Assembly: GCA_964386875.1 (NCBI GenBank)
Contig: CAYLUK010000005.1
Coordinates: 1-32,595 of the forward strand
Length of the DNA stretch: 32,595 nucleotides
DNA from: an uncultured Gammaproteobacteria bacterium
GTDB taxonomy: Bacteria > Patescibacteriota > Patescibacteriia > 2-01-FULL-39-33
Reading direction: 5' to 3'
Part shown: one piece after another, positions 1 to 24,453 of the stretch
Layout: each line of letters starts with the position of its first letter
Numbering within the stretch: position 1 is the first letter of the stretch
The notes under the pieces: model-generated
What the model was told of the DNA's origin: nothing
What the model saw: the letters and a program-made list of their open reading frames with translations, nothing else
Database searches by the model: none
Program-made: the position numbers and the translations under genes

Positions 1-244
1 AATCTATAGACGCATAATTGTTTCTTTTCCTCCGGTTACTGAGATGTTTCACTTCGCCGGGTTGTCTTCCATATCCTATGTATTTAGATATGGATGTCTT
101 GCCTTCAACAAGACGGGTTTCCCCATTCGGATATCTCCGGATCAAAGGTTGCTTGCCACCTCTCCGAAGCTTTTCGCAGGCTACTACGTCCTTCATCGCC
201 TTTTGATGTCTAGGCATCCACCATTTGCTCTTAGATGTTTAATC
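1..244 (-). rRNA. rrl: 23S rRNA, 5' end (truncated by window edge)
   Basis: Reverse complement reads GATTAAACATCTAAGAGCAAATGGTGGATGCCT...GGCGATGAAGGACGT...CCGAATGGGGAAACCC...GAAGTGAAACATCTCAGTAACCGGAGGAAAAGAAA, matching conserved 23S 5' motifs. The 5' end was placed by eye against the E. coli start GGTTAAG. Confidence 0.97.
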
Positions 245-333
245 ACAAGAATTATAATTGCGAATTAATTTCTCAATTAATAATTAATAATTCTCGACGA
301 ATTGTTTTTTTGTTATGGTTTTGTTTTTTTAAA

Positions 334-345
334 TTGTCAAAGTGC
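334..345 (-). promoter_or_regulatory. boxA-like antitermination motif in 23S leader
   Basis: GCACTTTGACAA on the minus strand ~90 nt before the 23S 5' end; resembles rrn boxA TGCTCTTTAACA. Confidence 0.55.
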
Positions 346-565
346 TGAATTTTGACGCCTGAAACGACTTGTACATTCTGTATAATCAATACTATTTGTT
401 ACTCTCGTTTGCCCAGCCCTTCGTGTGGGGCTGTGGTCAAAGTCTATTGGGATCACTTTGTAATCATTTTTGTCGATACGGCTCCGTATCTTATGTTACT
501 AAAGATTTAATTCCCAAAGTGTGATTGATAACCAGTGATAGTTATCGGTCATATCTTTGGGATTT

Positions 566-591
566 AAAAAAACCGCCTTTTCTCCAGCGGT
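566..591 (-). terminator. intrinsic terminator within rRNA leader (attenuator candidate)
   Basis: Minus strand ACCGCT-GGAGAAAA-GGCGGT followed by TTTTTT. Confidence 0.6.
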
Positions 592-621
592 ATTTACCAA
601 ACAGAACACAAAAATACCTCG

Positions 622-666
622 TTAACCCGGAGAGTAGTTATTAAATAATATTTTGATAGTATTCAT
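622..666 (-). CDS. putative 14-aa leader peptide MNTIKILFNNYSPG
   Basis: ATG at 666, TAA at 624-622, starting ~12 nt after the predicted TSS. Its last codons overlap the antiterminator arm. Translation is not demonstrated. Confidence 0.4.
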   Translation of the reverse strand: MNTIKILFNNYSPG

Positions 667-684
667 ATTATTTCAACCTTGATT

Positions 685-713
685 ATTTTATATGATTTTT
701 GATTTTTTGTCTA
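685..713 (-). promoter_or_regulatory. sigma70-type promoter, probable 23S rRNA promoter
   Basis: TAGACA (713-708), 17 nt, TAAAAT (690-685) on the minus strand, with AT-rich sequence upstream. Confidence 0.65.
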
Positions 714-742: not shown

Positions 743-767
743 AGAGTTAGTCCTTAATATAATTATA

Positions 768-1088
768 TTACTTTTTTTTGTCTTTGTCAAGGTTTTTATC
801 TAATTCTTCCTTTTCTTTCTCATCAGCTAGTTGTTTTTTGGCAAAATCGACCAATTTTCCTAGTTTTATGGTAATTAAGACAATAATTATAGTGATAATG
901 ATGGCATAGCCAAATTGAGCGATAATACTGCCAGCTTTAGGGAAAATTATGGTAAAAAGGCCTTTAATCGCGTCATTCCAGGCTAAAGCTGCTACCAGAC
1001 CAAAGCCAGCCGTAGCAAGTCCAGCCATTTTTTCTAAAATTTCGATTTTTAATGATTTTTTTTCTGTTTCAGTGTTGTTTTCTGACAT
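768..1088 (-). CDS. small two-TM membrane protein (DUF5654-like)
   Basis: Motif AGFGLVAALAWNDAIK plus a second TM helix. ATG 1088 (MSENN) preferred over 1115. Confidence 0.75.
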   Translation of the reverse strand: MSENNTETEKKSLKIEILEKMAGLATAGFGLVAALAWNDAIKGLFTIIFPKAGSIIAQFGYAIIITIIIVLITIKLGKLVDFAKKQLADEKEKEELDKNLDKDKKK

Positions 1089-1162
1089 AAATCGCATTAT
1101 GATGTGATTAAGCACATCTAGATCAATTAAAGGAGAATAATAGGTATGACTAGTTTTTTTTC

Positions 1163-1678
1163 TTAATCATAGATAAAAGTCAGTGTGCAAAGAGTACAAT
1201 TTTCAGATGGTGGTGGGGTGGCTGCTGTAGCGTTTTGAAATTGACATGATTGATTAGCTCCTTTCATAGTCCACTTTATCAGATATCGATGATTGTTGGG
1301 CTGTAATTGATATACATATCCTTCTCGACCACATGAAAGTTCACTGATCGGCAATGATGGCAGATATTGAGACAGGGCGGTGTTTATAGTGCTATTCTCG
1401 GGGGTGTTGTTATCATTCCAGCAGTTGTCATCGGCATAATCGCCCAAGCAAATCCAATCATTATTTCCCGGATACTCACCATAATCTTCGTAATACAGTG
1501 TTAGAGCATTTGTATAGGCCTTAACATCGGTTATTTTTTTGGTGTTAGAAGCTTTGTCTCTGGCCGAGCTGAATGCCACTAATGACAGACTCATTAACAG
1601 CGAGATAATGGCGATTACTACCAGTAGTTCAACTAAAGTAAAACCGTCCTGATGATTTTTTTTTGTGGGTGTTTTCAT
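1163..1678 (-). CDS. type IV pilin / type II secretion pseudopilin (GspG-like)
   Basis: Prepilin cleavage/methylation motif G-FTLVELLVVIAII, then ARDKA...ALTLYYEDYGEYP and a Cys-rich globular domain. Confidence 0.9.
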   Translation of the reverse strand: MKTPTKKNHQDGFTLVELLVVIAIISLLMSLSLVAFSSARDKASNTKKITDVKAYTNALTLYYEDYGEYPGNNDWICLGDYADDNCWNDNNTPENSTINTALSQYLPSLPISELSCGREGYVYQLQPNNHRYLIKWTMKGANQSCQFQNATAATPPPSENCTLCTLTFIYD

Positions 1679-23040: not shown

Positions 23041-24453
23041 ATGTCTCAATCACCAATCCAAGCGGCAATCCAACAAATCTGCCAAGAAAAAAGCTTATCC
23101 GAAGAATCTGTCATCCAGACGATTGAAGTGGCGCTCGCCGCTGCCTTTCGTAAGGATTTTGGCAATAAAATGCAAAATATTATTACTAATTTTGACTCCA
23201 AAACTGGCGGAGTCAAAGTTTTTGATGTGAAGACGGTAGTTGAGGATTTACCGGAAGATTATTTTGATGAGTTAGTAGAGGATGACGATGACAAGAAAAA
23301 GTCAGTTATAGCCAAAGCACCGAAAGTAGCTGATAAAGCTTATGTGTCTATCGAGGGTGAGGGTGAAGATGAGGAAGAAGTCAGACGATTTAATCCCAAG
23401 ACAGAAATCCAGCTCAAGGATGCTAAAGAGATTGCTAAGAAGTACAAAGTCGGCGATGAAATCGTCACGCCACTTGAAGTACCGGGTGAATTCGGTCGTA
23501 TGGCCGCCCAGACAGCCAAACAGGTTATTATTCAGAAACTGCGCGAGGAAGAAAGACAAAACATTTATACAGAATATAAAGAGCTTGAACATCAAGTGCT
23601 CAATGCCACAGTCCAACGGTGGGAAGGTAGGAATGTTCTCATTGACTTGGGTCATACCACAGCGATTTTACCGCCCGACGAGCAAGTCAGTCGTGAGCGT
23701 TATAGTATTGGCAACCGAATGAAGTTCTACCTCAAGTCGGTTGAGCAGACTACTCGTGGACCACAGCTGGTTGTTTCTCGTGTTAATAAGGATATTATCA
23801 ACAAGATTTTTGAAATGGAAATTCCCGAGGTAGCGAGTGGTGTGATCACCATTAAGTCGGTCGCCCGCGAAGCCGGCAATCGGTCAAAGGTAGCGATTTT
23901 CAGTGATGATGACAATATTGATCCGATTGGATCATGTGTGGGTCAGCGTGGAGCACGGATTCAGACAATTATCAATGAGCTAAATGGTGAGAAGGTTGAT
24001 ATTATATTGTGGAATGAAGATTCGATTAAATTTATTACTAATGCGATGTCACCGGCCAAAGTGATATCAGTCAAGTTCAAAGATGCTAAGGATGAAAGCG
24101 TGGAAAAATCAGCCGTGGTGACAGTCAAAGAAGACCAGTTGTCCCTGGCAATTGGTAAAGCTGGTCAGAATGTCCGACTAGCGTCCAAGCTAACTGGCTG
24201 GAAGTTGGATATAATTTCTGATGCGGTAAAAATTAGTGATAAAAAAGAAAAGATAGTGGAAGAATTAACTGACGATAAAGACAATGGTGATAATGAAAAA
24301 GCAGAGGGTGGTGAGAAGATCGACGACAAAGAGAAAACGGCAAAGAAAAAGACAATCAAACAGAAAGACCAAGAGTCTGAAGAGGTAGACGGCGATAAAA
24401 AAGAGAATAAAGATAAGAAAAAACAGGAAGAAACGGAAAAACCAGTAGAATAA
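23041..24453 (+). CDS. nusA: transcription termination/antitermination factor NusA
   Basis: FGRMAAQTAKQVIIQK, AREAGNRSK, IDPIGSCVGQRGARI, SLAIGKAGQNVRLASKLTGWK; charged C-terminal tail. Confidence 0.98.
   Translation: MSQSPIQAAIQQICQEKSLSEESVIQTIEVALAAAFRKDFGNKMQNIITNFDSKTGGVKVFDVKTVVEDLPEDYFDELVEDDDDKKKSVIAKAPKVADKAYVSIEGEGEDEEEVRRFNPKTEIQLKDAKEIAKKYKVGDEIVTPLEVPGEFGRMAAQTAKQVIIQKLREEERQNIYTEYKELEHQVLNATVQRWEGRNVLIDLGHTTAILPPDEQVSRERYSIGNRMKFYLKSVEQTTRGPQLVVSRVNKDIINKIFEMEIPEVASGVITIKSVAREAGNRSKVAIFSDDDNIDPIGSCVGQRGARIQTIINELNGEKVDIILWNEDSIKFITNAMSPAKVISVKFKDAKDESVEKSAVVTVKEDQLSLAIGKAGQNVRLASKLTGWKLDIISDAVKISDKKEKIVEELTDDKDNGDNEKAEGGEKIDDKEKTAKKKTIKQKDQESEEVDGDKKENKDKKKQEETEKPVE

Follow-up and report, generated by a model that had tools for sequence, protein, structure and literature searches.

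The leader of the 23S ribosomal RNA (rRNA) gene at the start of contig C5 (CAYLUK010000005.1, assembly GCA_964386875.1) probably contains a ribosome-mediated transcription attenuator, in which translation of a short open reading frame (ORF) would lower the output of an unlinked 23S gene. The 32,595 nucleotides (nt) of DNA analysed are referred to as the window. The host was a groundwater bacterium with a tiny genome that belongs to the Patescibacteria, and its contig breaks off within the 23S gene (the assembly comprises 0.93 Mb in 90 contigs). On the minus strand, the leader contained two promoters (P1 and P2), the ORF, an intrinsic terminator, a covarying hairpin and a boxA-like site, in this order, followed by the 23S gene. 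The last codons of the ORF, designated region 2, were complementary to the end of the 5′ arm and the loop of the terminator, designated region 3. The pairing of regions 2 and 3 would form an antiterminator that excludes the terminator hairpin. Comparison of the leader sequences of related genomes established the parts of the element, their order and conservation, where the promoters lie, that both alternative helices covary and that the element is specific for 23S.

The original prediction, which was drawn from the letters of the window alone, had described a promoter, a 14-codon ORF and a terminator (ACCGCT/GGCGGT with a U-tract) that together had the layout of a leader-peptide attenuator. 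All three were located at the proposed positions, and the overlapping antiterminator completed this layout. The promoter was P2, the ORF encoded MNTIKILFNNYSPG, and the terminator ended in seven T residues. The spacer between the stop codon and the terminator was approximately 30 nt long and contained a run of T. Two pairings had been proposed as mutually exclusive with the terminator, and both overlapped its 5′ arm or loop. The first (TCTCCGG with CTGGAGA, i.e., regions 2 and 3) was complementary with one G–U pair, and it was conserved and covarying in the relatives, which supported an exclusive antiterminator. The second (GGTATTT with AAATACC) was complementary in the window only; the relatives had a local spacer hairpin and did not conserve it, and the helix was therefore dropped as a shared feature and kept as an extension specific to the window. 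P1, the second hairpin and the boxA-like ACTTTGACAATT had been missed.

Promoter- and terminator-like sites were frequent in a scan of this AT-rich DNA. Positions 1–2500 of the window contained two terminator-like sites, one of which was the terminator described here, and 1.9 were found in shuffled sequences. Taken as a single sequence, the features of the window are not beyond chance. The features were considered real because comparison with the relatives revealed conservation and covariation of the ORF, of the terminator and of the first pairing.

When 61 related genomes, including the genome of the window itself (G000), were searched at the DNA level, several genera contained sequences that matched the leader, and in the 10 loci checked with Rfam the match was directly upstream of a 23S gene. 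A covariance model built on the terminator region (R1) detected one real copy per genome in 23 of the 34 family genomes and in 11 of the 19 genera. In the alignment of the 10 loci, the consensus promoter was followed by TTATCCACA, the second promoter, the ATATGA start, the short ORF, the terminator, the long hairpin, ACTTTGACAATT and the 23S gene. The pattern of P1 (TTGACA-N16-18-TAnnnT) was present upstream of the ORF in all 23 family leaders, and that of P2 (T[AG]GACA-N16-18-TAnnnT) was present in 20. An ORF of 12–16 codons that started with ATG spanned the motif CTCC in 22 of the 23 leaders, and the motif was read as S/T/F-P in 19 of them. In the main family group, the ATG was located 34, 31 or 28 nt before the motif; hence, the length of the ORF varied by whole codons.

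The antiterminator was a contiguous helix of 6–10 base pairs (bp) in 23/23 family leaders, with compensatory changes such as A–T to G–C (four sequences), T–A to A–T (G018) and G–C to A–T (G001). The terminator helix was 99.3% paired in the family alignment fitted to the model (24 rows, one of which was a spurious reverse-strand match), and three of its six pairs had changed on both sides. Covariation was strong in this stem and in the hairpin that follows it.

Outside the family, 11 of the 14 loci with weak R1 matches were directly upstream of a 23S gene, and these loci in other families had the same design with different sequences. The closest named relatives of the NusA protein encoded in the window were Candidatus Buchananbacteria, followed by Kuenen-, Falkow-, Komeili-, Kerfeld- and Uhrbacteria, a grouping that we take to be GTDB class ABY1. 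The class was sampled by anchoring on the 5′ end of the 23S gene, and the sampling was blind to the leader. This 5′ end was present in 111 of 151 class genomes, and 110 leaders of 650 nt each were collected (28 + 80 loci, G000 and G012; the place in G159 was left out, and one stretch was shortened by a contig end). The detector required three features: a hairpin that carried a T-run, an ORF of 9–20 codons that started with ATG and ended 8–75 nt upstream of the hairpin, and an uninterrupted stretch in which the final 18 nt of the ORF (+3 nt) were complementary to the 5′ arm and loop of the terminator. With at least six Watson–Crick pairs, 61 of the 110 leaders passed, against 1.5 expected from 100 dinucleotide shuffles per sequence, and with at least seven pairs 44 passed, against 0.3 expected; related genomes are not independent samples, so these shuffle statistics overstate the significance. 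A terminator-like hairpin with an ORF candidate was found in 97 leaders.

The association between the ORF and the pairing was also evaluated from the other side, without regard to any ORF. An upstream segment formed at least seven Watson–Crick pairs with the 5′ side of the terminator in 55 of the 110 leaders, and an ATG ORF of 9–20 codons ended at this segment in 44 of the 55, whereas 3.9 were expected. When the best candidate was required to start with ATG, 60 leaders passed (the difference from 61 resulted from how the best candidate was picked). Among these 60 leaders, the ORF had 13 codons in 32 and 12–15 codons in 55, and the stop codons were TAA in 23, TGA in 19 and TAG in 18. The distance from the end of the stop codon to the terminator arm had a median of 26 nt (range 19–73 nt), and that from the terminator to the 23S gene had a median of 220 nt (range 52–410 nt; about 320 nt in the window). 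The pairing partners varied by family and yet matched within each leader, as in TTCCAAGCGGTT/AACCGCTTGGAA, CAGGCGGAT/ATCCGCCTG, TTCAGCGACT/GGTCGCTGAA, CACCGGAC/GTCCGGTG and CCGAGTGGCT/AGCCGCTCGG. The summed score of the cognate ORF tails and terminators was 539, whereas the mean after permutation was 406, and none of 2000 permutations reached the cognate value.

The peptides contained no run of a single amino acid, as had been proposed for the window. Their composition was not enriched beyond K, S, L, T and N, which are common in AT-rich genomes, and the peptides ended in S-G in 33 leaders and in G-G in 7. These endings were common because the terminator arm is usually GCCGCT, to which AGCGGC is complementary; the remaining sequence varied widely. 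Sensing of one specific amino acid was rejected for lack of a codon run.

The folding of the 60 leaders was calculated, and the results predict a balanced kinetic switch. In nascent RNA that lacked the 3′ arm of the terminator, the antiterminator was part of the minimum-energy fold in 55 leaders. In the complete leader, the terminator was present in 28 of the predicted folds and the antiterminator was present in 30. When each structure was forced, the two differed by a median of 0.1 kcal/mol, and the difference was at most 3 kcal/mol in 34 leaders. For the window, the energies were −14.0 kcal/mol with the antiterminator and −17.2 kcal/mol with the terminator, and all seven antiterminator pairs formed in the nascent RNA. 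When the nucleotides that a ribosome would cover while the stop codon occupies its A site were masked, the terminator formed in 56 of the 60 leaders. Given the median of 26 nt between the stop codon and the terminator arm, a terminating ribosome would cover region 2 and not the terminator. The folding and masking results support the direction of control that had been proposed, in which a ribosome at the stop codon would allow termination.

In the proposed mechanism, transcription would start at the strong P1/P2, and the polymerase would then transcribe the ORF, the spacer with its T-run and the terminator. If the end of the ORF is free of a ribosome, region 2 would pair with region 3 as the latter emerges, the terminator hairpin would be blocked, and the polymerase would read through the boxA-like site into 23S. 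If a ribosome reaches the stop codon in time, region 2 would be hidden, the terminator would form, and the transcript would end at about position 566. The default in the absence of timely translation would be read-through. The output of 23S would thus fall when the leader is translated promptly and rise when initiation or elongation is slow, which would constitute negative feedback from translational capacity to the synthesis of large-subunit rRNA. Because no amino acid was singled out, the measured quantity would be the speed of ribosome initiation and elongation relative to the polymerase. A run of at least five T was present in the spacer of 33 of the 60 leaders, whereas 7.4 were expected (approximately four-fold over shuffles). 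This run started at a median of 8 nt past the stop codon (4–14 nt), often within or after a small hairpin, and it may be a pause that gives the ribosome time to load. We infer that the ORF is translated and that the hairpin terminates transcription; the direction of control, pausing at the T-run and the physiological signal are likewise proposed. The attenuator interpretation of the original prediction is supported as far as sequence can answer. The coordinates are listed in Table 1.

Table 1. Features of the 23S leader in the window, from P1 to the gene.
Feature	Position	Strand	Basis or remark
P1 promoter, sigma-70-type, TTGACA-17-TATAAT, perfect	762..790	-	12/12 consensus score
TTATCCACA 9-mer between P1 and P2	734..742	-	read from sequence
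P2 promoter-like TAGACA-17-TAAAAT	685..713	-	10/12 consensus score
Leader ORF, 14 codons + TAA, product MNTIKILFNNYSPG	622..666 (ATG 666-664, TAA 624-622)	-	
Region 2, antiterminator 5′ strand, TCTCCGG, last codons of the ORF	627..633	-	pairs with 587-581
Inner helix GGTATTT (618-612) / AAATACC (595-589)	589..618	-	complementarity specific to the window
T-run in the spacer 3′ of the stop codon	610..614	-	candidate RNA polymerase pause
Region 3, antiterminator 3′ strand, CTGGAGA, end of terminator 5′ arm + loop	581..587	-	
Intrinsic terminator ACCGCT-loop-GGCGGT + T7	566..591	-	terminator scan
Second hairpin AATCCCAAAG...CTTTGGGAATT with inner stem, directly 3′ of the T-tract	508..565 (about)	-	RNAalifold
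boxA-like ACTTTGACAATT / CACTTTGACAATT	332..344	-	conserved in family alignment
23S rRNA gene, 5′ end	1..244	-	Rfam LSU_rRNA_bacteria, 179 bits, model positions 1-244

The spread of the element and its restriction to 23S were evaluated with the same detector. The leaders of 16S and 23S genes from related Patescibacteria had both been suggested for comparison, and the design recurred in the 23S leaders, as described above, and not in the 16S leaders. Only 3 of 60 16S leaders from the same class passed; their geometry was irregular, and they were read as chance. In other classes of Patescibacteria, 20 of 59 23S leaders passed (the sample comprised 60 stretches, and one of 20 nt was dropped). These leaders had the same hallmarks, for example 13-codon ORFs that ended in R-S-G or K-S-G. 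An outgroup genome of the Chloroflexota type was reached through a NusA match, and none of 30 23S leaders from its phylum passed. Two loci of this type (L338 and L339) contained a 13-codon ORF (MESNKSLL...) in the 16S–23S spacer, approximately 170–260 nt upstream of 23S and approximately 34 nt ahead of a hairpin that was GC-rich and carried a T-run. The ATG was missing in a third relative (L340), so the case of L338 and L339 is probably chance.

The arrangement of the rRNA genes was also explored. The Patescibacteria studied had tiny genomes with mostly single rRNA genes, and the leader element was present in one copy per genome. In most genomes of the class, 16S and 23S were unlinked; they were far apart or on separate contigs and sometimes on opposite strands. 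The distance between them was 62, 24 and 20 kb in three family members and 71–220 kb in single-contig genomes. The 16S gene was absent from the assembly of the window's genome, which is 90% complete.

Several observations weigh against an attenuator that is operated by translation. The strict detector failed in 49 of the 110 class leaders, 13 of which had no terminator-like hairpin at all, and the non-independence of the related genomes mentioned above has to be considered. The terminator stems were short (5–7 bp), the ORF of one leader (G108) stopped 12 nt short of region 2, and the window alone was not distinctive, since the fold of positions 680–560 was no better than those of shuffled sequences (z = 0.01). 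The mechanism would raise 23S output when translation is slowed by starvation, which is opposite to stringent control, and a RelA/SpoT homologue is encoded. The other such observations concern the ORF itself. One family member (G001) had no ATG, GTG or TTG ORF over the motif, and three others read the motif in another frame. The peptide was conserved only as far as the RNA pairing enforces. Finally, a Shine–Dalgarno-like motif was found ahead of only 4 of the 60 leader ORFs, and such motifs were likewise rare before the long ORFs of the window (6 of 21).

This last group of observations would also fit a switch that is real but is set by the speed of the polymerase, by a small molecule or by a protein, such as a Nus factor or a ribosomal protein, with the ORF as a by-product of the constraints on the sequence. 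This explanation is considered unlikely. An ATG and an open frame of 12–15 codons were maintained in 55 of the 60 leaders despite an unconserved sequence between the ATG and region 2, and the ORF ended at region 2 far more often than expected in the analysis that disregarded ORFs (44 of 55). Moreover, the variants of the ATG distance differed by whole codons, and all three stop codons were used. In the three frame-shifted members, the stop codon had shifted along with the frame, and a short ORF was preserved ahead of the terminator. The conservation of the ATG, the frame and the length supports translation of the ORF indirectly.

It is quite improbable that the attenuator answers a specific stalling signal, such as an antibiotic that targets the ribosome or a metabolite acting with the nascent peptide, and boosts 23S under that stress instead of gauging how many ribosomes are generally available. 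Leader ORFs without codon runs that sense stalled ribosomes are known, as described for the stress and antibiotic sensors vmlR (PMC9226507) and toiL (PMC12121999). In the erm, cat, vmlR and toiL systems, a short ORF without a codon run likewise precedes the regulated gene, and a stalled or absent ribosome alters the downstream structure or termination. The fixed length of 13 codons and the P-S-G, K-S-G or G-G endings before the stop codon could reflect a constraint from the exit tunnel or from stalling at termination. However, these systems control resistance or toxin–antitoxin genes through particular nascent peptides, whereas the 23S leader has an unconserved peptide and precedes an rRNA gene, with no resistance gene downstream. 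The peptide sequences varied widely, and the C-terminal residues were explained by the complementarity to the terminator arm. S-P-S/G was accordingly rejected as a functional peptide end: the nucleotides were kept but the frame differed in the three family members, and elsewhere the ending tracked the terminator arm.

It is most improbable that the promoters, ORF and terminator are an independent gene for a 13-amino-acid peptide or a short RNA and that 23S has its own promoter, because, although the unit from P1/P2 to the terminator is self-contained and is separated from 23S in the window by a distance that includes an insertion of approximately 160 nt absent from most relatives, promoter-like sites were concentrated upstream of the ORF, the terminator was only 52–100 nt from 23S in some relatives, the element precedes 23S and not 16S, a free-standing peptide gene would have no need for the covariation between ORF tail and terminator, and no Rfam family was matched. 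Promoter-like sites with a score of at least 11/12 occurred in the 200 nt ahead of the ORF in 50 of the 60 leaders and between the terminator and 23S in 2 of the 60 (4 of the 60 at a score of at least 10/12), over comparable total lengths. No promoter-like site was found in the scan of positions 566–244 on the minus strand of the window. The TTGACA at 340–335 was rejected as a promoter since the sequence 17 nt further on was CATAAC, which failed the scan, and no conserved −10 element was present at the right distance; this TTGACA sits inside a longer conserved motif, which is the boxA-like site.

The ribosome-mediated attenuator is retained as the best explanation for the leader. Antitermination in rrn operons uses nut-like boxB–boxA–boxC sites that are bound by NusB/NusE, NusA and NusG. 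The boxA-like motif of the family resembles the boxA of rrn operons. The pattern was present 3′ of the terminator in 17 of the 23 family leaders, and a narrow boxA pattern was found in only 19 of 61 class leaders; the claim of a boxA is thus confined to the family. NusA is encoded in the window (23041–24453, plus strand), and NusB and the RelA/SpoT homologue are encoded on other contigs (C16 and C10). The RNA-binding domain of Rho was not found in the 90%-complete assembly of this genome. The leader resembles rrn antitermination in having a boxA-like site together with encoded NusB and NusA. In Escherichia coli, nut-like sites are located in the 16S leader and in the 16S–23S spacer, according to a review (PMC8632103). 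The 23S leader differs in that the boxA-like site is located 3′ of the terminator; hence, a Nus complex assembled there could not rescue the polymerase at the terminator. The attenuator would be an added layer without a counterpart in the described rrn leaders.

The second hairpin, which directly follows the T-tract, had the strongest covariation in the leader. Thirteen of its 14 pairs had changed on both sides, and none of 500 shuffles reached the observed score. In the relatives, the T-tract itself paired with a downstream A-run. This hairpin may be boxB-like, may be a processing stem or may protect the read-through RNA.

Attenuation by a leader ORF is textbook knowledge for amino-acid operons. 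The trp, his, leu, thr, ilv and pheA attenuators of enteric bacteria likewise combine a short leader ORF with an intrinsic terminator, and the 5′ strand of their antiterminator is in or adjacent to the ORF. In the trp/his type, the position of the ribosome likewise picks the hairpin, and a pause may synchronise the polymerase and the ribosome; the pausing mechanism of the his and trp leaders is treated in the same review (PMC8632103). Unlike these attenuators, the 23S leader has no regulatory codon run, its target is rRNA and not mRNA, and the length of its ORF is fixed at approximately 13 codons. It also lacks the upstream region 1 by which transcription of an untranslated leader would be terminated, and its default would thus be read-through. 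In pyrBI and pyrE of E. coli, translation of the leader is coupled to the polymerase, and a ribosome that moves into the terminator blocks termination. The 23S leader resembles them in that the outcome would be set by how close the ribosome is to the polymerase and not by one amino acid. It differs in the gap between the end of the ORF and the terminator arm (median 26 nt), because of which termination should be favoured by translation.

An early study reportedly observed that transcription pauses and is attenuated in the E. coli rrnB leader. The original prediction had named no described rRNA attenuator of this type, and no description of a leader ORF or attenuator before an rRNA gene was found in full-text searches, which did not cover subscription journals and supplements. 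Within this literature, the putative attenuator fits a known kind of leader-ORF element, but its rRNA target has not been described previously. The ribosome feedback regulation model of Nomura and co-workers, as summarised in PMC2320978, proposes that rRNA synthesis per gene drops when functional, translating ribosomes are in excess; according to the same source, ribosomes were not found to act directly on rRNA transcription in E. coli, and the link was judged to be only indirect. The logic of the 23S leader is the same as that of the model; the difference is that ribosomes would reach the nascent rRNA leader directly, through a cis element.

If the element works as its anatomy predicts, ribosomes would act directly and in cis on how much of their large-subunit RNA is made. 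Many families of Patescibacteria have conserved the element, which is thus likely central to growth control in this group, almost all members of which are uncultured. A broader proposal is made only tentatively, and we would stop short of endorsing it: ribosome homeostasis may be wired into the 23S gene, with the nascent leader serving as mRNA for the 13-codon ORF, such that each timely ribosome on the ORF aborts one transcript and translating capacity sets the output of large-subunit rRNA with no protein regulator. The element may then be the main control point of the 23S genes that are separated from 16S throughout the phylum, and it would give the old idea of ribosome feedback a physical form. 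As an RNA device, the element is compact and portable, and it makes a clear prediction that can be tested.

Further features of the leader and its surroundings were also recorded. The 9-mer TTATCCACA between P1 and P2 is identical to the consensus DnaA box. It was present in 20 of the 23 family leaders, one of which (G028) matched only the 8-mer TATCCACA. On the forward strand, it was found in 19 of the 110 class 23S leaders, 13–94 nt upstream of the ATG of the ORF, and in none of the 60 16S leaders and none of the 59 leaders from other classes. DnaA, or another factor, may act on the 23S promoter.

In the scan of the window with Rfam 15, only large-subunit rRNA and tRNA reached the gathering score. 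A permissive scan of positions 200–1200 gave a single match on the leader strand that overlapped 553–800, namely CyaR_RyeE at 726–793. The match was below threshold (18.5 bits, whereas the gathering score is 47; E = 2.1), and we read it as chance. P1 overlaps the 3′ end, i.e., the last codons, of the upstream gene, which encodes a DUF5654 membrane protein (768–1094, minus strand) and is syntenic in several relatives. The insertion in the window is located between the second hairpin and the boxA-like site (approximately 507–345, minus strand) and holds two small hairpins, GATACGG/CCGTATC at 490–475 and CAGCCC/GGGCTG at 433–413.

A long stem with a T-run at its end was conserved among the 16S leaders of three family members (GGGAAAACAGTGGTATCTGA ... 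ATCGGATCCCTCTGTTTTTTC; L056, ~3250–3120, minus strand; L057, ~1130–1210, plus strand; L058, ~3490–3410, minus strand). No conserved leader ORF was found in these three 16S leaders, and a boxA-like TTTGACAACT follows the stem. Small-subunit rRNA may thus be controlled by an element of another kind.

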